Under the pieces are notes generated by a model. It saw only the letters and a list, made by a program, of their open reading frames with translations, made no database searches and was not told where the DNA came from. From the NCBI GenBank assembly GCA_963674755.2, contig CAXXVS010000003.1, positions 1,184,001 to 1,248,000 of the forward strand: 64,000 nt of DNA, read 5' to 3'. The stretch is from Desulfobacterales bacterium (GTDB lineage Bacteria; Desulfobacterota; Desulfobacteria; Desulfobacterales; UBA5852). A program made the translations under genes and the position numbers. Positions 7,647-38,441 of this stretch are shown here, in pieces; the stretch's first letter is position 1; each line of letters starts with the position of its first letter.

Positions 7647-8042
7647 ATGACAACCATTGGCGACATTTATCAAACCGCGGACTGGAAATCGGAGAAGCAT
7701 GTGCCCGTGATCGAATGCCCGGACCGTGTGAAAGCGGACGAGGTTTTCGACGTCAAGGTATCCCTCGGCAAGGAAGTGGCCCACCCCAATACCACCGAGC
7801 ATCACATCCGCTGGATTCAGCTCTACTTCAAACCCGAGGGGGGCAAATTCGCCTATCAGGTGGGCAATTTCGAGTTTACGGCCCACGGCGAATCCACCGA
7901 AGGGGCCAACCAGGGCCCGGTGTACACCAACCACACTGCCACGGCCAGCATGAAGATCAACAAGCCGGGGACCCTGCTGGCCACCGCGTTTTGCAACATT
8001 CACGGCCTGTGGGAAAACGCCAAGGCGGTTTCCATCGGGTAA
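7647..8042 (+). CDS. Superoxide reductase (neelaredoxin type, single iron site)
   Basis: EKHVP, HPNTTEHHIRWI and CNIHGLW iron ligands; AAGGAGG RBS. Confidence 0.92.
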   Translation: MTTIGDIYQTADWKSEKHVPVIECPDRVKADEVFDVKVSLGKEVAHPNTTEHHIRWIQLYFKPEGGKFAYQVGNFEFTAHGESTEGANQGPVYTNHTATASMKINKPGTLLATAFCNIHGLWENAKAVSIG

Positions 8043-26451: not shown

Positions 26452-29400
26452 TTATTCCAGAACTTCCCGAATCGCCTCGGACAGGATGGCCTTATTATAG
26501 GGTTTGATGACCACTTTGCGGATGGAATCGATCCGTGCTGCCATATCCACCGGGGCCTTGCGGCCGGTGACCATCAGGATCGGCGTCTCGGGATGCTTGA
26601 CCTTGACGGCTTCTGCAAGTTCGATGCCGTTGACTTCGGGCATGTCGAAGTCCGTGATCACCAAATGAAACGGTTCCCGGGCCTCATCGATGGCCGCCTT
26701 GGCGGCCTGGCCCCCATTGCGGGCTACCACCTCATAACCGAGGTTGCCGAGCACCCGCGGAATGAGCTCCAGCTGATCCGGGTCGTCTTCCACAAAGAGA
26801 ATGCGGCCTTTGCCCCGGTGAACAGCGGTCCGGGTTTCGGCGACGTCACTTGCCGTTCCGCTGCCGGCCGGCAGGAAAATATCGAAGGTGGTCTCCACAC
26901 CGGGCTGGCTGCCGACCCGGGCCGCGCCGTTGTGCCCTTTGATGATGCCGTGGGCCACGGCCAGACCGAGGCCGGTGCCTTCGCCCTTGCCCTTGGTGGT
27001 AAAAAAGGGATCAAAGATCTTGTCCTGGATATCAGCCGGAATGCCCGGACCGTTGTCGGAAATCGCGAGATTGAGATAGGCCCCGGCCTGGATGCCCAGC
27101 AGTTCCGCCTCGCCGGCATTGAGCAAGACCTGGCGAAGCCGGATGCGAATGTGTCCCCCGTGGCCCTTCAAGGCCTGGTAGGAGTTGGTGCAGAGGTTCA
27201 TCACGATCTGATGGATCTGGGTGGGGTCGGCCATGCAGGGGCTCAGATCCGGCGCGATCTGCAAATCCACTTCGATATTGCGGGGCAGCGAGGTGCTGAT
27301 CAGCTGCACCGCCTCCTGCACCACGCCGGCGATATCCGTCCGGCGGATCCCCTCCTGGTCCGCCCGGCTGAAAGTCAGGATCTGTTGCACCAGCTGACTG
27401 CCCCGTTCGGCCGCCTTGAGACTGCGCCGCAGGTCGCGGCCCGCCTGGCTCTCGGGGGCCACATCCTCCAGGGCCAATTCGGTGGAGTTGTAGATCGAGG
27501 TCAGGATGTTGTTGAAATCGTGTGCGATGCCGCCGGCCAGGGTGCCGATGGCCTCCATCTTGGTGGATTCGAGCATGCGGCGTTCCATGATGATGTTTTG
27601 GGTAATGTCCTCCGCGCTGGACAGCACTCCCACCACCGCGCCCTGATCGTCAAGCAGGGGCAGCCGGTTGACGAGCATCCAGCGCTTTTCCCCTCTGTGG
27701 TTGTGCACCGGCCAGCGCATGCGATAGGAGGGACGGTTGGCCTCCGCCACCTTGCGGTCTGTCTCCATGCTCTTGAGGCCCTCGGTCTTCTCCGGGAAGA
27801 GGTCGCTGTCCTGCCGGCCGATAATGGCATCCACGTCCGCAATGCCGAAAAAGTCCCCGAAGCTCTTGTTGGCCCCCAGATAGCGCAGCTTGCGGTCTTT
27901 CCAATGCACGAGCTGGGGGATGTTGTCCAGCACCAGTTTGAGCATCTGTCGGGAGGCACGCAGGTTCTTCTCCGCGGTTTTACGCTGGGTGATGTCTTCG
28001 ATGAAGCCTTCATAGTAGCCGATCCGGCCGTCTTCCCCCTGCACCGCACGCAAATGTTGGGTCACGATGATGCGCCGCCCGTCCCGGGTGCGGCATTCGC
28101 GCTCGAATTGGACCGGCGTCGGGAGGTCTTGGGCGTCGGCCGCCGCTTCCAGCGGCCGGATGCAGAGGGCTTCCGGCATCTCGGCCCCGGCGGCCGTCAG
28201 GGCCTCCCGGCTGTCGAACCCCAGCATCTGGGCCAAAGCCGGATTGGCGTCCAGGATGCGCCCGTCGGCCGACGATCGGAAAATGCCCAGGGCTGAATTT
28301 TCAAAAATGCTGCGATATTTTTCTTCGGCCTGAATCAGCTCGCGCTCCGCTTTTTTACGCGCCGTGATGTCGTAGATCACGCCCACCAGGCCGGAGATTT
28401 CGCCCTTGGCATTGCGGTAGCCGGCCTTGTGCAAAATCACGTCCCGCGGGGCCGTGTCGGCGCCCGGCAGTTGGACTTCATAGATGCGCACCCCGTCCCG
28501 GGCCATCAACTCGTCATCCACCCGATCCATCAGTCGGGCCGGGCCGTGGGCATCGAAGCTCTTGATATCGCAACCGATGATATCGCCGCGCGCCAGGTCG
28601 TACCATTTCTCGAAAGCCTCGTTGCACTCGGTCACCACGCCGTCACGGTCTTTAAAATAGATGGGGATGGGGATGGTGTTGACCAGGAGCTTGACAAAGG
28701 CCAGCTGTTCCTTGATGCGCTGTTCGATGGCGCGCCGCTCGGAGATGTTGAACATGAGCACCACCAGGGTCGCGGTGATCACCGTCATGGCGATGGCCAG
28801 CGCCCAGAAGAGCTGGGGGTTGATCTGAAACAGGTAGGAGGTGTGATTGATCAGGGCGCTTTCCGGCGGCAGGTCAGACGTGGATATATGAAACCGCTTC
28901 AATTGGTTGTTGTCGAAAATGATGGGTTCGTCCTGGGGGGTCTGGATCGGGATTCCGTCGATGGGCTCCCCCCGGAGTACCCGCACCAGCAGATCGCCCG
29001 CCGCCGCGCCGTGGGCATAACCGCTCAGCACTTTGCCGCCCACGATGCCCGAGCCCAGCATGAATTCCCAGTTGCTGTAGATGGGGGCGCTGGTGATCTG
29101 GCTAAGCTTGGCCACGATATCGTTGGCGGAATAGCGCTCCCCCTCGAAATCCATGTAAAAGGGGATGAAATAAAAAATGACATCGTCGGCCGCGTTCCGG
29201 GCCCGCTCCAGGAGCGGCTGGAGCTGGTCGGAGATCACGAATTCGATTTCCGGCCGGTCGTGAAAATCGGCGATGGCGGCCTTGATCTGGTTGCTGATGG
29301 CCGTGGCGGTGGTGGAGCGGTTGCCCATCACCACGATCTTGCGGCGGCCGGGATGAAACCGCAGGGCCATGCGCAGATTGGTCTTGACGTCGAAATCCTC

Positions 29401-29868
29401 GGTGACGCCGGTGATGTTGGCCTGATCCCGGATCATGGACGGATTGAAATCGTTGATTCCGCAGAACACCAGCGGTACGCCGGGGAAAAGCTCCTCGCGG
29501 AACTTCAGAATGAAATCGAAGGCATTGTTGTCCGACACAATGACGGCATCGAAATTAATGCCCTGATATTTATGGGCATAAATGCCGTAGAGATACCGCT
29601 CGACGTTGGCGTCGTAACGCTGTTTGGTATCCATGTATTCGATATGCAGGGCCACATTGAGCCCCGAGTGTTCGATGGCGCTCTGGATGCCTTCCATCAG
29701 GCTGTCCGACCAGGTGTAGCCGTTGTGGTAGGAATTGAGATAGAGTACATTCAGGCGATCGTGTCCGTCGGCCTGGACCCTATCGGCCGCACTGAGCAGC
29801 AAAATCCCGCAAACCGCCGTCCACCCAAGCATCGCGGCCGTCTTCCGCTTTTTCATAGCAAAACTCAT
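26452..29868 (-). CDS. Hybrid sensor histidine kinase (periplasmic binding-protein-like sensor, 3 PAS, HisKA/HATPase, REC)
   Basis: Signal/TM, YLNSYHNGYTWSD domain, TM, PAS repeats, AHDFNNILT, DPFFTTK, GTGLGL, C-terminal receiver. Confidence 0.93.
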   Translation of the reverse strand: MSFAMKKRKTAAMLGWTAVCGILLLSAADRVQADGHDRLNVLYLNSYHNGYTWSDSLMEGIQSAIEHSGLNVALHIEYMDTKQRYDANVERYLYGIYAHKYQGINFDAVIVSDNNAFDFILKFREELFPGVPLVFCGINDFNPSMIRDQANITGVTEDFDVKTNLRMALRFHPGRRKIVVMGNRSTTATAISNQIKAAIADFHDRPEIEFVISDQLQPLLERARNAADDVIFYFIPFYMDFEGERYSANDIVAKLSQITSAPIYSNWEFMLGSGIVGGKVLSGYAHGAAAGDLLVRVLRGEPIDGIPIQTPQDEPIIFDNNQLKRFHISTSDLPPESALINHTSYLFQINPQLFWALAIAMTVITATLVVLMFNISERRAIEQRIKEQLAFVKLLVNTIPIPIYFKDRDGVVTECNEAFEKWYDLARGDIIGCDIKSFDAHGPARLMDRVDDELMARDGVRIYEVQLPGADTAPRDVILHKAGYRNAKGEISGLVGVIYDITARKKAERELIQAEEKYRSIFENSALGIFRSSADGRILDANPALAQMLGFDSREALTAAGAEMPEALCIRPLEAAADAQDLPTPVQFERECRTRDGRRIIVTQHLRAVQGEDGRIGYYEGFIEDITQRKTAEKNLRASRQMLKLVLDNIPQLVHWKDRKLRYLGANKSFGDFFGIADVDAIIGRQDSDLFPEKTEGLKSMETDRKVAEANRPSYRMRWPVHNHRGEKRWMLVNRLPLLDDQGAVVGVLSSAEDITQNIIMERRMLESTKMEAIGTLAGGIAHDFNNILTSIYNSTELALEDVAPESQAGRDLRRSLKAAERGSQLVQQILTFSRADQEGIRRTDIAGVVQEAVQLISTSLPRNIEVDLQIAPDLSPCMADPTQIHQIVMNLCTNSYQALKGHGGHIRIRLRQVLLNAGEAELLGIQAGAYLNLAISDNGPGIPADIQDKIFDPFFTTKGKGEGTGLGLAVAHGIIKGHNGAARVGSQPGVETTFDIFLPAGSGTASDVAETRTAVHRGKGRILFVEDDPDQLELIPRVLGNLGYEVVARNGGQAAKAAIDEAREPFHLVITDFDMPEVNGIELAEAVKVKHPETPILMVTGRKAPVDMAARIDSIRKVVIKPYNKAILSEAIREVLE

Positions 29869-30028
29869 GTCAATTCAAACCCTTTCCAGCCCATCTCTTC
29901 CGGACCATCCCCCTGCATCCGGCATCCAGTACCCGGCCCCATGTCCCCGCCGATAGGCAACGGCAACAAGAAAACATGATGCCACGCCATTGCTGAGGCT
30001 TTGGACAACAAACCAATCCATTTCCATC

Positions 30029-30044
30029 TGCAAAATATACGCCA
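30029..30044 (-). promoter_or_regulatory. Sigma-54 promoter candidate upstream of the sensor kinase
   Basis: Minus strand TGGCGT-ATATT-TTGCA (GG-N10-GC). Confidence 0.45.
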
Positions 30045-30091
30045 TGGGATGCCGGCCGATCGCCCCTGATAGGCCGGGAATAAACGGCCTG

Positions 30092-31483
30092 TCAAACGTC
30101 GTGCGCGTCGATGACCTTATTGAGATCGATTCCGTACTTGCGCATGCGGTTCCACACCGTGACCCGGTTGATTCCCAGGAGCTCCGCCGCCCGGGTCTGA
30201 TTACCGCCGGTTCGGCGCAGGGCCTCGATCAGCGCCTGCCGCTCCCTGGCATCGCCCACGGGTGCCTTGCGGGCAGCGGACGCCCGCGGTACCTCGGACA
30301 GGGCGGGCGGCAGGTGGTCGACGCCGATCTGGCCGCTGTCGGCAATCACGAAGGCGTATTCCAGGGCACTTTTCAACTCCCGGATATTGCCCGGCCAGTC
30401 GTGGGCCATGACGGCCTGCAGCGCCCCGGGGGTGAGTCCCTTGATGGCCTTGCCGGTGCGCACCTGCAGCCGCTGGACGAAACTGTTGACCAGTAGCGGA
30501 ATGTCCTCCCGGCGCTCCCGCAGCGGCGGAATGCGAATGGGAATGACATTGATGCGGAAATAGAGATCTTCGCGAAACTGCTGCTGTTCGATCAGGGCCA
30601 GCAGATTCCGATGGGTGGCCGATATGATGCGCACATCCACATCGACGGAACGGTGGTCGCCCACCCGCTCGATCTGTTTGTTTTCCAGCACCCGCAGGAG
30701 CTTGACCTGGACCGAAAGGGGAATATCCCCGATTTCGTCCAGAAAGATGGAGCCCCCGTCGGCCGCTTCGAAGCGTCCTTTGCGGTGGCGGTAGGCCCCG
30801 GTGAAAGCGCCTTTGATGTGGCCGAAAAGCTCGCTTTCCAGCAGGGCGGCGTTGAGGGCGGCACAATTGAGCTGCACATAGGGTCCGGTCTTGCGGTGGC
30901 TCCGTTCGTGGATGGCCCGGGCCACCAGCTCCTTGCCGGTGCCGCTTTCCCCGAAGATGATGACCGGCGCACTGCTCAGGGCCGCCTTCTCCACCACCTG
31001 GAAGACCTTGCGGATGGCCGGAGACGTTCCGATGATGCCATGATAATCGCTAAAGTCGTTCAGCTGGCGGGAGAGCAGCTCCACCTGCTGGTCCAGCCGG
31101 TCGATTTCGCTGAGATCGGTAATCGTCTCCACCGCCCCCAGCACGTTGCCTTCGTCATCCCGCAGGACCGAGGCATTCTTGAGGGCCGGCAGGCAGGTGC
31201 CGTCCTTGCGGACGATGCCGCAACGGCAGCGGCGCATATCGGGATGATGGGGCTCGAAGAGTTTGCACCACTGCCCCAACGGATTGTTCAAAGCCTGTTC
31301 GCAGGCATCGCACCCTAGAAAGGTGCAGACCCGGCCGATGGCTTCCTCGGCGCTGTAGCCGGTCAGCCGCTCGAAGGATTTGTTGACCATCAGGATGGTT
31401 CCCTCGGCGCTGATCAGCATCAGACCGTCGTTCATGGTGTTGATGATCCGTTTCCAGTGCCGGCTGATGTCCCCGGTTTCCAT
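30092..31483 (-). CDS. PAS-domain sigma-54 enhancer-binding protein with Cys-rich sensor
   Basis: PAS with CTFLGCDAC...WC...CRC...[22 protein letters not shown], Fis-type HTH; divergent from the cytochrome operon. Confidence 0.93.
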
Positions 31484-31534
31484 TTTCCTCCTCGCGATGC
31501 GGAAGCCTCAAATTGTAAAATCAAATCCTGCAAT

Positions 31535-31564
31535 TGTTTAATCACGTTTAAACACCTGTTTAAA
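31535..31564. promoter_or_regulatory. Probable upstream activator site (TGTTTAA half-sites)
   Basis: TGTTTAA-TCACGT-TTAAACA palindrome (31535-31554) followed by a third half-site TGTTTAAA (31557-31564). Confidence 0.65.
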
Positions 31565-31660
31565 TAGCATGACCGGCCAACCCTGACAACCGCTGGTCTT
31601 AAACCGTATTATTACAATTATTTTAATCAGTTGTATTGATTCCCAATTTTAAGGGGACAC

Positions 31661-31676
31661 CGGTATGCTTATTGCT
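31661..31676 (+). promoter_or_regulatory. Sigma-54 promoter of the cytochrome operon
   Basis: CGGTAT-GCTTA-TTGCT (GG 31662-63, 10 nt, GC 31674-75), just upstream of the ATG at 31703. Confidence 0.7.
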
Positions 31677-31702
31677 CTACCCGTTAACAGGGATAAACAA
31701 CC

Positions 31703-31951
31703 ATGGACGTCAATCTGCCGGATATCGCCGGACCGATCGGTATGCTGAAATGCCTGGCCGCACTCAGGAAGCTGCCGGCCGGTGACGCGGTGGCCTTTAC
31801 CGTGCGGGATGCGGATACGTATCACACCCTGGTAAAAATCTTCAGCCAGGATGCGCGCTGCCGCATGACCACGGAAGAAACCGCGCAAGGCCACTATATG
31901 GTTGTCCGTAAACTTAAGGAAGGAAAGATGACGACGGGAGGTACGCTATGA
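31703..31951 (+). CDS. TusA/SirA-like small protein lacking the canonical CPxP
   Basis: 82 aa; pattern NL....GPIGMLK...L..L..GD.V...V.D fits the TusA fold; ATGA overlap with next gene. Confidence 0.65.
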
Positions 31952-32868
31952 ATCTGAGCCGAAGAGGTTTTTTCAAAGTCGTGGGCGCCACCGGAACCGG
32001 CATGGCCGCCTCGCGTGCGCCGGCCGCGGCCTGGCAGTCCCGGGCCCCGGCCGATGCCTTCGGCTGTCTCGTGGATCTGACCCGCTGCATCGGCTGCCGC
32101 AAATGCGAACAGGCCTGCCAGACGGTCAACAGCCTGCCGGAGCCCGAACAGTCCTTCGACGACCTGACGGTCCTGGACCGCAAGCGCCGTCCGGACGACA
32201 AGAGCTTTACGGTGGTCAACCGCTACTATTCCGGCAAGATCGACGAACGCGACCAGCTCGTCCCCACCTTCGTCAAAATCCAGTGCATGCACTGCCAGGA
32301 TCCGGCCTGTGCCTCGGCCTGCATCGTGGGGGCCCTCACCAAAAAAGAAAACGGCGCCGTCCACTACGACGCCGGCAAATGCATCGGCTGTCGCTATTGC
32401 ATGGTGGCCTGCCCCTTCGAGATCCCGGCCTACGAGTACCACAACCCCATCACGCCTCGGGTAATGAAGTGCACCTTCTGCTACGAGCGGGTCGCCGAGG
32501 AAGGCAAGCTGCCCGGCTGCGCCCAGATCTGCCCGGTGGAGGCTATCACCTTCGGCAAGCGGGCCGACCTGCTCAAACTGGGCCGCCAGCGCATCAAAGA
32601 CAATCCAGGGCGCTACATCGATCACATCTACGGCGAAAACGAGGTCGGCGGCACGAGCTGGATGTACATCTCCGACCGGCCTTTTAAGGAGCTCGGGTTT
32701 ATCGATGTGCCGGAAAAGCCTTTGCCGCAGCTGGCGGAAACCATCCAGCACTCCCTGTTCAGTTATCTCTGGTCCCCCATCGTCCTGTTCGCCATGCTGG
32801 GCGGCGTCATGTGGGGCTTCCGGGATAAAGGCGACCGTCATGACGAGAACCAAGGAGGGAACCCATGA
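31948..32868 (+). CDS. Tat-exported 4x[4Fe-4S] protein (HybA/NrfC/HmcB-like)
   Basis: SRRGFFK Tat motif; [41 protein letters not shown]...PGCAQICP; C-terminal TM. Confidence 0.92.
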
Positions 32869-34070
32869 GCCATTCCCCAAGCCCGATGCGGACCAAGTTC
32901 TGGACGCCCGGGGTCGTTACCCTGGCCTTTCTGATGGCCGCCGGGGCCGCGGCCATCGTGGCCCGCTACACCGGTGGCATCGGTTATGTCACCAACCTGA
33001 CCAATGCCCGGCCCTGGGGCCTGTGGATCGGGGTCGACGTGGCTTCGGGGGTGGCCCTGGCCGCCGGCGGTTTCACCACGGCCTTCCTGGCCCACATCGT
33101 AAGCCGCCACTATTACGAACCGGTGGTGCGCCCGGCCCTGCTGACTGCCATGCTGGGCTACACCTTCGTCGTGCTGGGGCTGCTGGTGGACATCGGCCGC
33201 TCCTGGGCCATCTGGAAACCCCTGGTCTACTGGAATCCCAATTCGGTGCTCTTCGAGGTGGCCATGTGCGTCATGTTCTACCTCAACGTGCTCTACCTTG
33301 AATTCGTGCCCATCGTGGTGGCGCAGTACAAGGGACGGGTCAACCTGCCGGGGCCGCTGGCCGCCCTCAATGCGCCGCTGGAAGGCCTCCTCAAGGTGCT
33401 CGATGTGATCACCGGTAAGCTGATGTGGGCCTTCATTATCGCCGGAGTGGTGCTCTCCTGCATGCACCAGTCCAGCCTGGGCTCCCTCATGCTGATCGCC
33501 CCCACCAAGCTGCACCCCCTCTGGTATACGCCCATCCTGCCGCTGCTCTTTCTCACATCCGCCATTGCGGTGGGCTACCCCATGGTGGTCTTCGAAACCA
33601 CCCTGGTCACCTCATCCCTTAAGCTGGACCCGGAGATGCACATTCTCTCCCCCCTGATCCGCTTTACCGTCTTCCTGCTGGGGCTCTACCTGGCCCTGAA
33701 GATTGGCGACATGGGGGTGCGCGGCACCTACGTCTACCTGCTGGACGGCACGGCCCAGACCAACAGTTTCCTGGTGGAGCTCGTCTGCGGCGTGATCGTG
33801 CCCTGGGTCATGCTCCTGCTGCCCAAGGTGCGCCAGTCCCGCCGGGGCCTTTTCATCGCCTGCACCCTGATCGTGGGGGGTGTCCTCCTGAACCGCGTCA
33901 ATGTCTTCGTGGTGGGCTACCGTCCGCCCATCAGCGAGGCCAACTACGCCCCGGCTCTGCCGGAAATCATGATCACCGTCGGCCTCATCGCAGGCCTGAT
34001 GTTCCTCTATCGTTTTCTTGTGACCTATCTGCCGGTGTTGAACCGACCGGAACAGGAGGTGTCGGCATGA
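32865..34070 (+). CDS. NrfD/HybB/HmcC-family integral membrane quinol-interacting subunit
   Basis: [46 protein letters not shown]; about 10 TM; ATGA overlaps at both ends. Confidence 0.92.
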
Positions 34071-36184
34071 TCAACAAGTCATCTATCATTTTAGGGGTAA
34101 TACTCCTGGCGGGAATCAGCGGCGGACTGGTCGCACTCCCCCCGGTAGGCCCGGGAAGCGATGCGGTCTATGCCGCCGCAGCCCCGGAAACCGCCGCCAA
34201 GGAGACCCCGGCTGCCAAATGGTCGGCGCCGGACCAGGTGGCCGCCCTGGAACGGGCCCGGGAGACCCTGCCCTTCGTGGAAGCCGTCAAGGATGAGTGC
34301 AAGCTCTGCCGCCAGATGCGGCTGCGGGAGATGGGGCTTGGCACCAAGGACATCACCCACAACTACGTCGTCCTCAACAGCCCCATCATCAACACGGAGG
34401 AAGATCATTACGGACCGGTGCGCTTCATGCACGGCAAACACGCCTCCCAGATCCAGGACTGCGCGGTCTGCCACCACTACCGACCCCTGGCGGAAGACGC
34501 CAGCGAAACCACCCGCTGCTCGGCCTGCCACCAGGAAGCGTTTCGCCAGGACCATCCGGAGCGCATCGGGTTGAAGGCCGCCTATCACCAGCAGTGCATG
34601 GAATGCCATCGGGAGATGAACCAGGGCCCGGTGGACTGTATTGGCTGCCACGACAAGAACGCCCCCGACCACAAGGACAAAATCCAGTTGACCGCCGACG
34701 CGACCCCTTTCCAGGTGACCGCTGAGTGTCTGCGCTGCCACAAGGAGGCCGGCCAGGACATGCTGCAAACCGCCCACTGGAAGCTCAAGGGGCCGTCGCC
34801 TTATACTCTGGGCCACAGAAAGGAGGTCGAAATCGGGAAAAGCACCATTGCCACGAACAACTTCTGAATGAGCATCGCCAGCAACGAGGCTCGTTGCACC
34901 AGTTGTCACGTCGGCTATGGATGGAAAGATGCTTCTTTTGACCTCACGGATATGAGCAAGATCGATTGCCTGGTGTGTCACGACACCACCGGCACCTATA
35001 AAAAAGTCCCCACCGGCGCCGGTATGCCCGATCCGGAAGTGGATCTGGTGGCGGTGGCCAAAGCGGTGGGACCCACTTCCCGCAAAACCTGCGGAACCTG
35101 CCACTTCAACGGCGGCGGCGGCGAAGCGGTCAAACATGCCGATCTCTCCCGCCAGTTGTTGACGCCGGACCGCAATTGCGATGTGCATATGGGCGGCTAT
35201 GATTTCCAATGCACCGAGTGCCATCGCACCCGCAACCATAAAATCGCCGGACGCAGTTCTTCGGTTGCGGTGGTTGAAAGCAGTTTTTCCTGCGAAAACT
35301 GCCATACGGCCAATCCCCACCGGGGGGACGGTCTGCTGGACCATCATTTGAACAAGCACAGCCAAACCATCGCCTGCAACACCTGTCATTCCCCGGTCTA
35401 CGCCAAATGCAAGCCCACCAAGGTGTTCTGGGACTGGTCCAAGGCCGGAGACGTGGACCGCAAGCCCCAGAAGGACAAATACGGCATGCCGGACTATAAC
35501 TGGAAAAAAGGGGAATTCCGCTGGCAGGAATCCGCCAAACCCGTCTATGCCTGGGACAGCGGCTTCACCCAGCGCGTGCTGATCGGTGACAAGACGGATT
35601 GGCGAAAAGGGCCGATCAACATCTCCGAACCGGTCGGATCCATCAAGGACCCCAACTCCAAGATCGCGCCTTTCAAGATCATGAAGGGCATCCAGGCCGT
35701 GGACGCCGAATACGACTACCTGCTCGTGCCCCATCTGTTCCCACGGAACAAGGAGGACAAGACCGCCTACTGGAAGAACCGTGACTGGCAGAAATCTTTC
35801 GCGGACGGGATGAAGGCCGCCGGCTTGAAGTACAGCGGCACGTACGAATGGGCCACCTCCCAGATGTATTGGCGGGTGGAGCACGAAGTCATGCCGGCCG
35901 ACATGGCCCTCTCCTGTGTTCAGTGCCATGCCAGTCTGCAGTCCGAGGAGCGCACCTGCGACCGCTGCCACCAGGACAACCGCGCGGTGAATTTCAAAAA
36001 AATCGCCCACAAGGGAACCGACTTCAGCTACATGGCCTCCAAGGGGCGCGATGTGAGCCACCTCATCGGCACCACGGACTATATTGACTTCAAGGCCCTG
36101 GGCTACAAGGGCGACCCCATCATCTATGGCGGCCGCTTCAAGAAGCTGCCCATGGGGTACAAGGCCGAAGCGGAAAGAGAGTAG
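34067..36184 (+). CDS. Probable selenocysteine-containing 13-heme cytochrome c (cytochrome c3 domain fused to OTR-family octaheme domain); TGA 34865-34867 read as Sec267
   Basis: ORFs 34067-34867 and 34868-36184 are contiguous and in frame, reading GKSTIATNNF*MSIASNEARCTSCH where the OTR family has NNFC; 13 CxxCH in total; only the first part has an export signal and RBS. Confidence 0.85.
34865..34897 (+). promoter_or_regulatory. Bacterial SECIS-like hairpin after in-frame UGA
   Basis: Stem GCAACGA (34881-87) / TCGTTGC (34891-97), loop GGC starting with G, 20 nt after the UGA. Confidence 0.75.
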
Positions 36185-36248
36185 CCGGTCTCCGGTTTGG
36201 ATTTTCACCACCATCAAAAAGCTGCCGGGGACCTATGTTATAGATTTA

Positions 36249-36446
36249 TTAGATTAGTGATATCTTGTTCCCAATTTGTCGGGTTTTTGGAGATGTATCC
36301 CTAATGGCATTTAATGACCGTTCGTTCCGAATGATATGATCGTGGAATGATCGTTGCCAAAGAGGTTTGTTGAAGGGCGGCCAGCCGTTGTTTTTCACAT
36401 TTCTGATGTAATCATTGGTAGACATTGTTTTAAACCATTGAATCAT
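36249..36446 (-). pseudogene. REP-associated tyrosine transposase (RAYT/Y1) C-terminal fragment, frameshifted
   Basis: IQWFKTMSTN...LWQRSFHDHIIRNE..LNAIR, then YISKNPTNW continues in another frame; AT-richer than flanks. Confidence 0.8.
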
Positions 36447-36456
36447 GCCAGATACT

Positions 36457-36482
36457 GTAGGGGCGGACCGATGTGTCCGCCC
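36457..36482 (+). repeat. GTAG-type REP element
   Basis: GTAG followed by GGGCGGAC-CGATGT-GTCCGCCC (perfect 8-bp stem), adjacent to the RAYT fragment. Confidence 0.8.
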
Positions 36483-36489
36483 ATTAAAA

Positions 36490-36790
36490 CTAAACCCTTA
36501 AGAGCGGGAAAGTCACATCCGACTTGATGCCAAACAGGCGGCAGGATTCCCGGTCGCGGACAGCCTCCGGCGGCAGCTCCTCCAGCGAAGAGAAGCAAAC
36601 GATCCGACCGGACTGCATTTTTTGTAGGCACCGGGGAAAATGCTCTTGGTTCATATCGGAAGGTTGCAGACCGCCCGGAGCACTGTAAATGTGGGGAGGC
36701 GTCAATAAACCCGTGACCTCATCCGAGAACTGCCAGAGCGCCGCCAGATCCAACCCGAGGTATTCATAGACGCGGCGCCGGGCAGTGATG
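36490..36790 (-). pseudogene. Isolated GAF-domain fragment, paralogous to the N-terminus of the activator at 43945-45504
   Basis: ITARRRVYEYLGLDLAALWQ...ELPPEAVRDRESCRLFGIKS aligns by eye with IEAAQRRVCERLHIDRSTLFQ...DLPAEADRDRQSFIHYGTQS. Confidence 0.7.
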
Positions 36791-36794
36791 AAGC

Positions 36795-38441
36795 TTACCA
36801 GTCAGGCCATTGCCAATCCCGGCGATCCTTCTCGTCAGCAGGCGACTCCAGCCCCTGAGGATCCAGCAGGTCGCCCCAGTTGGTACGCTCGATCATTTGG
36901 TTGCGGTTTGCGGCCGAAAGCGGGTCTTCGCCCTCCCTGATTTGCCAGCCTCCCCCCAGGGCCTTGTAGGTGGCCACCAGATTTGTGCTCACCTGGCCGC
37001 TCACGTCGGTCAAAAGATCTTCCTGGGTGACCAGGAACCGCAGGGAGTCCAATACGCGCTGGTAGTCAGCGACCCCTTCGCGATATTGCACCAGCGATAA
37101 TTCCACCGATCGGCGGGCGGCCGCGACGCTGTCTTTCAGGAACCACTCTTCTTCCTTGGACCGCGTATACGCTACCAGTGCATCCTCGACTTCCCGTTGG
37201 GCGTTCAGCACCGTATTGCGGTAATTGACCACAAGCGCCTGAAGGCGCGCATCCTCGACCCGCACACGGTTGCGGATGCGCCCGTAATTCAGAATATCCC
37301 AGCTGAAACCGGGACCGGCGGTCCAGAACATACTGTTATGGTCGAACAAATCTCCCAGATCACGGTCGCCGGAGGCGGAACTGGCATCGGTCGAGCTCCA
37401 TCCAATGCTTCCGGCCAGGTAAAAATGCGGATACAGGTCGGCCTTGGCGATCCCGATCTGAGGGCTCTGGGCGGCGATGCGCAGCTCGTTGAGCCGAATG
37501 TCGGGTCGACGTCGGAGAAGATTGTTGGGGATGTCGATAACGACGGCCTCCGCGGCTACCGGAATCTTTGCCGGCCCATCCAACACGTCCTTCAGTTCCC
37601 CCGGCAGCACCCCCAGCAGGATGGCCATAGCGTTGCGGGCTTGGCGCAGGCCGATCTCCAAGCGGGGAATCGAGGCCTGGGTGTTGCGCAGCAACGTCCT
37701 GGCCTGGGTCACATCCAACTCCGAAACGGCGCCCTCCTTGAATCGGACTTTGGCAATCTGCAGTGATTGCTCCTGCGCCTTCACGTTCTGGCCGGCGATC
37801 ACCAGGCGTTTCTGCAAGGTGCGGATGACGATGTAGGTGCGCGCAACTTCCGCCGTCAGCGAGACGAGCAGGTCGTCATAGCTGGCGACCGTGGCCTCCA
37901 GGTTGGCGGTGCCGGATTGCACCGAACGGCGGAACTTGCCCCAGACGTCCAACTCCCAGGCCGCATCGAACCCCAGGCTAAGGGCATTGAAATGATCGTC
38001 GTAAATAGGGCTGTCGCCACCGGTGCTGAGTTTGTTGTTGGTGAGATCTCCGCCGGCCGACTGCTGCTGTGGGTACAGGGTGCCAATCGCAATCCCCAGC
38101 TGGGCGCGCGCTTCATAAATGCGGATGCCCGCGATCTGCAAGGAAAGATTCTGCCGATAGGCCTTTTCAATCAGGGTGTCGAGCACGGGATCGTCAAACA
38201 CCCGCCACCAGTCGCCATAGTCGGCCTTACCGACCCTCAGGCCGGGCGCCCGGGCCTCCGCCCAGTCTTTCAGCAGCGGCGCCTCCGGTTTGACAAAATC
38301 CGGTCCGACCATGGTGCAGCCGCTCATGATCAACACCATGGCAACTCCCGCCAGCCACAAAGACATCGTTGGTTGGGGCCGTCTCGCCAAGCGCCCTGTC
38401 CGGTCTTGATCGGTTAGCGCATCGCCTGTGCCTGTATCCAT
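36795..38441 (-). CDS. RND efflux outer membrane lipoprotein (NodT/OprM family)
   Basis: Lipobox MSGC-TMVGPDF, WW..F.DP.L, WELDVWG, LLRRRPDI, YKALGGGW. Confidence 0.93.
   Translation of the reverse strand: MDTGTGDALTDQDRTGRLARRPQPTMSLWLAGVAMVLIMSGCTMVGPDFVKPEAPLLKDWAEARAPGLRVGKADYGDWWRVFDDPVLDTLIEKAYRQNLSLQIAGIRIYEARAQLGIAIGTLYPQQQSAGGDLTNNKLSTGGDSPIYDDHFNALSLGFDAAWELDVWGKFRRSVQSGTANLEATVASYDDLLVSLTAEVARTYIVIRTLQKRLVIAGQNVKAQEQSLQIAKVRFKEGAVSELDVTQARTLLRNTQASIPRLEIGLRQARNAMAILLGVLPGELKDVLDGPAKIPVAAEAVVIDIPNNLLRRRPDIRLNELRIAAQSPQIGIAKADLYPHFYLAGSIGWSSTDASSASGDRDLGDLFDHNSMFWTAGPGFSWDILNYGRIRNRVRVEDARLQALVVNYRNTVLNAQREVEDALVAYTRSKEEEWFLKDSVAAARRSVELSLVQYREGVADYQRVLDSLRFLVTQEDLLTDVSGQVSTNLVATYKALGGGWQIREGEDPLSAANRNQMIERTNWGDLLDPQGLESPADEKDRRDWQWPDW

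Follow-up and report, generated by a model that had tools for sequence, protein, structure and literature searches.

The 64,000-nucleotide stretch analysed here (the window), from the genome of a Desulfobacterales bacterium, carries a four-gene operon for a TusA-like protein, an iron-sulfur (FeS) subunit, an NrfD-family membrane subunit, and a 13-haem cytochrome of the OTR family that is interrupted by an in-frame UGA. The operon lies behind a sigma-54 promoter-like site and opposite the gene of a cysteine-rich activator. It is real and conserved, a hybrid of known modules, and likely encodes a respiratory complex that is apparently undescribed. The features of the locus, in window positions, are:

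30092..31483, minus strand: Cys-rich PAS sigma-54 enhancer-binding protein (463 aa), with PAS, AAA+ sigma-54, and Fis helix-turn-helix (HTH) domains in Pfam
31547..31564, no strand: palindrome TTTAAACA-N2-TGTTTAAA, where the activator is predicted to bind, ~100 bp upstream from the promoter-like site
31660..31676, plus strand: sigma-54 -24/-12 promoter-like site, with GG-N10-GC spacing
31703..31951, plus strand: TusA/SirA-fold small protein (82 aa) without the CPxP persulfide Cys; match to Pfam TusA below cut-off
31948..32868, plus strand: HybA/HmcB-type 4x[4Fe-4S] subunit (306 aa), from the HybA model, with a twin-arginine (Tat RR) motif and a C-terminal membrane helix
32865..34070, plus strand: NrfD-family integral membrane subunit of HybB/HmcC/NhcC type (401 aa; PF03916)
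34067..36184, plus strand: 13-haem c3-OTR fusion cytochrome (705 aa including U267), with an N-terminal hydrophobic signal segment
34403..34651, plus strand: class III tetrahaem c3 domain of the cytochrome, residues ~113-195 (PF02085)
34667..35935, plus strand: OTR octahaem catalytic core, residues 201-623 (TIGR04315; 1SP3)
34865..34867, plus strand: in-frame UGA, selenocysteine (Sec) 267, in the OTR Cys64 column, from the 705-aa read-through frame and alignment
34881..34897, plus strand: selenocysteine insertion sequence (SECIS) hairpin, 17 nt, with a 7-bp stem and a GGC loop 20 nt past the UGA, from the 81-nt fold and conservation
35957..35971, plus strand: thirteenth CXXCH motif; it lies in a C-terminal extension that Shewanella OTR lacks

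As an earlier note based on the letters alone had claimed, the three junctions between the TusA-like, FeS, NrfD, and cytochrome genes read ATGA, with all open reading frames (ORFs) where it had placed them; a -24/-12 site precedes the operon at 31660-31676, and Pfam finds the PAS, sigma-54, and Fis HTH domains of the divergent activator. The TusA-like/FeS overlap is peculiar to the genome studied, its relatives mostly showing a short gap at this junction. A strict sigma-54 pattern lies between the activator and FeS genes in 30 of 40 loci, and the relaxed -12 box was found in 9/9 additional loci examined. The palindrome recurs within two mismatches in 28 of 39 intergenic regions as against 2 of 3900 base shuffles, a contrast that is inflated because the pattern was derived from those very regions; at one mismatch or fewer, 31547-31564 is its sole site genome-wide.

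The cytochrome contains 13 CXXCH motifs: four in the c3 domain, eight in the OTR core (at C221, C277, C301, C342, C382, C409, C437, and C617), and one extra motif, of which C631, C634, and H635 are invariant (93 rows). It passes the OTR family model TIGR04315 (493.7 bits vs a cut-off of 375), and its best solved relative is Shewanella OTR (1SP3; E 1.4e-112); the c3 domain resembles those at the C-termini of 9Hc and HmcA. In OTR the haem II motif is C74-H78, with Lys56 as ligand (PMC3769277), which places U267 in the OTR Cys64 column and K258 in the Lys56 column; U267 aligns with the NNFC cysteine of 1SP3. K258, the predicted haem II ligand by alignment, is present in 93/93 aligned proteins, and the residue-267 column among 92 full-length homologues is Cys in 85, Leu in six, and Ala in one. 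An AlphaFold model of the cytochrome has a mean pLDDT of 83.5 and a pTM of 0.83; it falls to ~70 around residues 251-280 and is confident across the UGA.

Recoding at U267, also proposed earlier, holds up: the UGA stands at a Cys column, the SECIS tracks the UGA, and selA, selB, selD, and tRNA-Sec are all present in the genome. Judged from these comparisons, it is near certain that UGA267 codes for Sec. A contig from a second study spans the TGA at 34865-34867 with zero differences, and since this independent contig is identical there, the in-frame UGA is not an assembly error. A census of Sec and Cys forms comprised 74 loci covering codon 267 (42 with TGA, 32 with a Cys codon), after removal of duplicates L091, L092, and L105 and the partial L085; L056-L078 were left out as Hmc-like, partial, or superseded by longer fetches. 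The exact SECIS hairpin occurs in 40 of the 42 TGA loci and in none of the 32 Cys loci, and the two non-exact TGA loci have one hairpin mismatch (L098) or another hairpin instead (L107). The window hairpin satisfies the bacterial SECIS model as given in a 2026 review, namely a loop of 3-9 nt with an early G and a stem of 4-16 bp, 16-37 nt from the UGA (PMC13188914). Folding energy was dropped as proof of the SECIS (z -0.58; a 40-nt segment folds differently, and the hairpin appears in the 81-nt fold), and conservation carries the case.

That the UGA is a real stop, leaving either a broken gene or two proteins with a restart at the following ATG, is scarcely credible. An ATG does stand directly after the TGA in the genome studied, and databases contain matching fragments of 434-438 aa, but only 9 of 40 loci have ATG at that position, a product of the downstream part would lack both a signal segment and Lys258, and the hairpin tracks the UGA with both halves conserved across 42 loci. 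Restart at the ATG was rejected on the ground that it is unconserved. The Sec form is hidden because gene callers split it at the UGA.

The importance that the earlier note gave to Sec was overstated, in that the complex also exists in Cys forms whose genomes retain selA: this gene scored above cut-off in 30/30 genomes tested, 15 of them Cys-type, so that loss of the Sec machinery was rejected as the cause of the Cys forms. Sec is thus an optional tuning and not a trait lost with the machinery, and since Cys versions are common, it would improve the site but be dispensable. In a FastTree tree of 181 rows, built with the Sec and SECIS columns removed, the 13-haem Sec forms group in a single clade (support 0.987), nested within a broader family of the Cys type; this clade comprises 38 Sec tips and 15 Cys tips (with some genes present twice) and seven parsimony changes, figures from a sampling that is biased because protein databases hold full-length Cys forms only. 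Stand-alone OTRs with Sec are placed elsewhere on the tree.

Several further observations concern the Sec site and its machinery. The codons for S-N-E-A-R-C (34880-34897) overlap the SECIS, and most Cys forms carry a Pro at the position that is Ala in Sec forms. NEAR is kept in some Cys proteins (P0009, P0016, P0040, P0053, and P0101), perhaps as a relic of Sec use. The stand-alone OTR of L107 is a Sec form whose UGA is followed by a different hairpin; its gene adjoins a CoA-disulfide-reductase-like gene, and it likely gained Sec independently. In the genome studied selA is present once, whereas selB and selD are present twice, with an in-frame TGA in both selD genes, and tRNA-Sec is called twice (G000:C1:776949-791365, C2:1226048-1226145, C2:1902839-1904731, and C3:2083622-2084545); the second selB adjoins the second tRNA-Sec, and the duplicates may form a second Sec-insertion set.

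The FeS subunit narrowly passes the HybA model (264.1 bits vs a cut-off of 263) and falls below that of HmcB (369 vs 420). Its 16 cluster cysteines are all invariant (31 rows), and it has a Tat RR motif and one hydrophobic helix at 270-288; its matches among solved structures are formate dehydrogenase and Psr-type beta subunits. The NrfD subunit, with nine helices by hydropathy, scores below the cut-offs of both HybB (320 bits vs 450) and HmcC (267.5 vs 550), and a sequence search returned no solved structure matching it. Residues D58, D109, S127, E131, and R344 are conserved in every row that covers them. By spacing, and with no direct NhcC alignment, they match D68, D119, S137, E141, and R345, which are given as quinone-site and gate residues of NhcC (PMC8076601).

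The FeS, NrfD, and cytochrome genes stand together in 53 fetched loci, the window included, in agreement with the earlier view that the genes are conserved as a unit, and the divergent activator is present at 42 of the 46 loci with enough upstream room. The full form is carried by a minority only among 60 sampled relatives, and the closest named loci are Desulfobacterales records; the Sec form occurs in cultured Desulfosarcina variabilis Montpellier (L007), and Cys forms in Desulfobacter curvatus, D. vibrioformis, and Desulfospira joergensenii (L019, L020, and L022). NrfD and the cytochrome form a single reading frame in six loci and in protein P0104, and this fusion may be cleaved, because the joint retains a signal-like segment. 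The fused loci (L099-L104) have one haem motif of the form CX3CH, and a PhsA/PsrA-like molybdoenzyme gene follows four of them.

The proposal that the quinone module and the OTR form one complex was taken up by structure prediction on a natural Cys-type orthologue pair (FeS subunit and cytochrome, L049/P0007). The c3 domain was docked on the FeS subunit with a score of 0.76, against 0.00 for the best control, a mark reached by 116 of 157 solved pairs and 2 of 215 mismatched ones. At least 88% of the contacts were shared between runs, partner pLDDT was 85 or higher, and the predicted interface sets the c3 helix 132-159 (~158-185 in the cytochrome of the window) against FeS residues 46-50 and 192-215. 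The cluster at this predicted interface is presumably, in the architecture of complex iron-sulfur molybdoenzymes (CISM), the one that faces the catalytic subunit. The prediction supports binding of the cytochrome to the FeS subunit. Absent from the earlier note were the c3 domain with its predicted docking, the fusions of NrfD to the cytochrome, and the sulfur-redox genes faced by the paralogous activators described below.

Each module of the operon has known counterparts. The OTR of Shewanella oneidensis (1SP3, TIGR04315) shares the eight-haem core, the position of the Lys ligand of haem II, and the Cys64 column; unlike that soluble enzyme, the operon cytochrome adds an N-terminal c3 domain, a thirteenth haem, Sec for Cys, and its own FeS/NrfD module. 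OhcBAC of Desulfovibrio vulgaris shares the combination of FeS protein, octahaem cytochrome, and membrane subunit, together with a sigma-54 promoter and the divergent one-component activator DVU3142 (PMC4641369). However, OhcC is a haem-b protein, whereas the membrane subunit of the operon is an NrfD protein that matches PF03916 only, and the operon cytochrome has 13 haems and Sec; OhcA (DVU3144) was compared by its description. Cytochrome b561 is found at other OTR loci. In one of these (L118), FeS, OTR, and cytochrome b561 genes follow one another after a CoA-disulfide-reductase-like gene; this arrangement resembles that of Ohc and suggests that OhcA is an OTR-family protein.

The Nhc, Hmc, and hydrogenase-2 (Hyd-2) HybAB systems share a HybA/HmcB-type FeS subunit, a HybB/HmcC/NhcC-type NrfD subunit, the spacing of the quinone site, and a c3-type partner domain; in those systems the partner is a hydrogenase or a multi-c3 cytochrome without catalytic function, whereas that of the operon carries the OTR active site. 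The cytochrome scores below the Nhc/Hmc models (9Hc, 51 vs 640 bits; HmcA, 67 vs 400), and the operon has no NiFe hydrogenase subunit genes. MccACD/SirACD and NrfABCD follow a similar plan, in which FeS and NrfD subunits link a multihaem terminal reductase to quinol (PMC8076601); the operon differs in its catalytic family (matches to OTR and c3 models only) and in an NrfD subunit of the 10-helix rather than the 8-helix type by best match, and those systems lack Sec. MccSep (ExtKL) of Geobacter sulfurreducens is also a periplasmic multihaem cytochrome of a member of the Desulfobacterota with a catalytic Sec and with Sec and Cys forms; it belongs to an unrelated family with five haems and a His/Cys haem, and NrfD goes unmentioned in the main text of its description (PMC13510729). 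The ExtKL model NF040886 had no match among the five families reported for the operon. MccACD, NrfABCD, Ohc, Nhc, Hmc, and Hyd-2 each have a defining feature that the operon lacks, so that it is none of these; the earlier note likewise had not recognised the combination as a described complex. The note overstated the novelty of the Sec-OTR itself, which a table in the 2026 review already lists as annotated in GenBank (PMC13188914). In the literature searched, which included few subscription papers, no description was found of an FeS-NrfD-c3-OTR complex or of the chemistry of OTR Cys64, though proteomics papers or supplements might contain an account of such a complex. Because every module is already known, the complex would be interesting rather than startling to a specialist.

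Clues to the signal and the substrate come from the activator and its relatives. In its PAS domain C53, C58, C61, C73, and C88 are each present in 40/40 orthologues, and C86 in 37; the domain is predicted to hold an Fe-S or metal centre. OrpR of D. vulgaris is likewise a sigma-54 activator, whose PAS cysteines bind a redox-sensing [4Fe-4S]; its cysteines (C52, C61, and C65) and its binding palindrome differ from those of the activator described here (PMC8359166). There are 19 other PAS matches in the genome, and five of these proteins keep five of the six PAS cysteines. The five paralogous activators face, respectively, TusA-MvhD-HdrA-DsrE genes, CCG-HdrA genes, a CoA-disulfide-reductase-like gene, thioredoxin reductase/thioredoxin (TrxR/Trx) genes with another gene of that reductase-like kind, and a Cys-type OTR with a cytochrome b; the CoA-disulfide-reductase-like matches are below cut-off. 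Since all five face disulfide- or persulfide-redox or OTR genes, we infer that the signal is a disulfide or sulfane sulfur.

One paralogous locus of this genome (L121:3997-10249; G000:C1) has canonical TusA, MvhD, two HdrA-like, and DsrE genes behind its Cys-rich activator. Another (L108; G000:C1:346601-347884) holds the second OTR of the genome, a Cys form with eight haems; beside it are cytochrome b561 and, divergently, a Cys-rich activator of the same subfamily; in a similar locus of a same-genus genome (L106) the OTR is a Sec form with an identical SECIS.

The earlier note had argued that the TusA-like gene favours sulfur chemistry, and this argument did not survive. The ORF scores 19.7 bits with PF01206 (cut-off 28.6), the cut-off being exceeded in four of nine relatives scanned, and the gene is conserved as the first of the cluster in 37 loci, two of them duplicates. 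The TusA motif is CPxP with a persulfide Cys (PMC8528874); this Cys is found in 0/23 aligned TusA-like proteins, a Cys lies five residues past the CPxP position in 15 of them, and some orthologues have no Cys at all (e.g., L003). Lacking the CPxP cysteine, the gene is weak support for sulfur chemistry, and a role of its product as persulfide carrier was rejected; judged by its motif, the protein is an accessory without the canonical persulfide cysteine. In the Atlas it yielded leads below 0.9 only.

Better support for sulfur chemistry than the TusA-like gene comes from the neighbours and from the targets of the paralogous activators. Neighbours were counted at 41 Sec, 9 Cys, and 6 fused loci, from genomes that are kin and with many loci short. 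The Sec-peroxiredoxin PrxU (above cut-off) occurs at 12 Sec loci and at no Cys or fused locus; MBL-rhodanese at nine Sec loci, one Cys locus, and no fused locus; YeeE at two Sec loci and at no Cys or fused locus; and a PhsA/PsrA-like molybdoenzyme (below cut-off) at one Sec locus, no Cys locus, and four fused loci.

We posit, at about even chances, that the complex is a periplasm-facing menaquinol-linked reductase, probably one that cleaves S-S bonds (polysulfide, polythionates, or persulfides). The Cys-rich PAS activator, whose sites are those listed above, would sense the load of sulfane sulfur or the thiol redox state and fire the sigma-54 promoter from the palindrome, and UGA267 would be decoded as Sec through the hairpin. 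The NrfD subunit would oxidise menaquinol at the conserved D109/S127 site, perhaps with proton coupling, and the electrons would pass through the four [4Fe-4S] clusters to the c3 domain, which is predicted to dock at the cluster that usually serves a catalytic subunit, and along the haem chain to the Lys-ligated haem II. There the S-S bond would be attacked by the Sec267 selenolate beside haem II, leaving a selenylsulfide for the haem chain to reduce again, by analogy with MccSep. For MccSep, a haem together with Sec has been reported to be able to reduce polysulfide (PMC13510729), and an otr gene was induced 36-fold by tetrathionate in an acidobacterial metagenome-assembled genome (PMC8528874).

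Several points weigh against this reading. The step from menaquinol to polysulfide is uphill by redox potentials. OTR Cys64 would line the open face of haem II, and the closeness of U267 to that haem is inferred from alignment together with the OTR structure. Some complexes manage without Cys or Sec, given that seven of the 92 homologues carry Leu or Ala in this column. The docking may have passed through likeness to known structures of FeS subunits with their partners, on an orthologue model, and the folding energy of the SECIS hairpin is unremarkable. Neighbours with a link to sulfur are in the minority and belong to related genomes; in the window no sulfur-related gene is adjacent to the operon, and one Cys locus (L019) has NrfH and an HAO-like gene downstream. 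In vitro, OTR has been reported mainly to reduce nitrite and hydroxylamine (PMC12949373, PMC4911364), and in Shewanella ANA-3 deletion of otr left tetrathionate respiration unaffected, the authors suggesting sulfite instead (PMC12949373). The closest membrane modules, Nhc and Qrc, are described as running from c3 to quinone, in the opposite direction (PMC8076601).

This last point is the core of one alternative, in which menaquinone is the electron acceptor of the complex. The electrons would come either from the oxidation of sulfide, sulfane sulfur, or thiosulfate at the Sec-haem site or from the periplasmic c3 pool, and the reaction could serve, for instance, sulfur detoxification or disproportionation. 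An NrfD subunit of this type is also part of the c3:quinone oxidoreductases NhcABCD and Qrc (PMC8076601), the c3 domain is akin to those of 9Hc and HmcA, and the sulfur-redox context is compatible with both directions. However, a complete OTR catalytic core with its Lys ligand is retained, which a pure relay would not need, and the OTRs assayed have mostly been reductases, with very low thiosulfate oxidase activity (PMC12949373); we consider the reverse direction unlikely. Distinctly unlikely, too, is a quinol-linked nitrite or hydroxylamine reductase, protective or ammonifying, that replaces NrfABCD. Reduction of these compounds is the main in vitro activity reported for OTR, no NrfA (PF02335) was found in the 97%-complete genome, and NrfH and the HAO-like gene adjoin the L019 locus; yet the genome already has two clusters of NrfH with an HAO-like gene, none of the five paralogous activators faces a recognisable nitrogen-oxide gene, and a selenol would have no clear use in nitrite reduction at a haem. 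The two clusters (G000:C3:1497177-1499200 and 1849846-1851840) are themselves candidates for nitrite reduction.

An improbable reading is that of a periplasmic sulfite reductase, a functional twin of MccACD/SirACD: MccACD shares the plan of multihaem catalyst, FeS subunit, and NrfD (PMC8076601), and slight build-up of sulfite was reported for the otr mutant (PMC12949373). The host genome already has dsrA, however, and MccSep, the sole studied haem-Sec enzyme, does not reduce sulfite according to its description (PMC13510729). More improbable still would be an oxidant sink within a redox-stress regulon, where electrons from quinol would serve to reduce peroxides or selenite at the Sec-haem site. 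In four loci (L024, L025, L040, and L041) the operon itself includes genes for Sec-peroxiredoxin or thioredoxin, one paralogous activator faces TrxR/Trx, and selenite is reported to be reduced by MccSep (PMC13510729), but peroxidase activity of OTR was not found in the parts of the OTR literature consulted, and a 13-haem membrane complex would be costly for scavenging.

A broader version of the S-S-cleaving reductase reading, which we hold tentatively and with some doubt, is that of an overlooked inducible complex of the Desulfobacterales. In it a selenolate by an open Lys-ligated haem would cleave S-S bonds, as a second haem-Sec site, independent of MccSep and gained repeatedly within OTRs; a c3 adaptor would link it to a proton-coupled NrfD subunit, and a family of Cys-rich PAS activators that sense sulfane sulfur would control it. 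The physiological substrate of OTR has been described as unsettled since 2004 (PMC12949373). If true, the OTR family would gain its missing physiological role, namely an energy-conserving polysulfide or polythionate respiration or an arm of sulfur disproportionation, and if sulfane sulfur is reduced, abundant sulfate reducers of sediments would have an unrecognised route for cycling sulfur intermediates. Because this OTR comes with its own electron supply, activator, binding site, and natural Sec/Cys switch, in cultured strains, its substrate, its direction, and the role of Sec are directly testable.

Right after the operon lies a short ORF (36249-36446, minus strand), where close relatives have PrxU and MBL-rhodanese; it has no Pfam or NCBIfam match, and we take it to resemble a fragment of a REP-associated transposase. 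A scan of 29000-38000 against Rfam gave no credible match, and a terminator scan gave weak sites only (10 found vs 7.0 expected). Elsewhere in the window, at 7647-8042, is a gene of the desulfoferrodoxin family (superoxide reductase type) that is unrelated to the operon.

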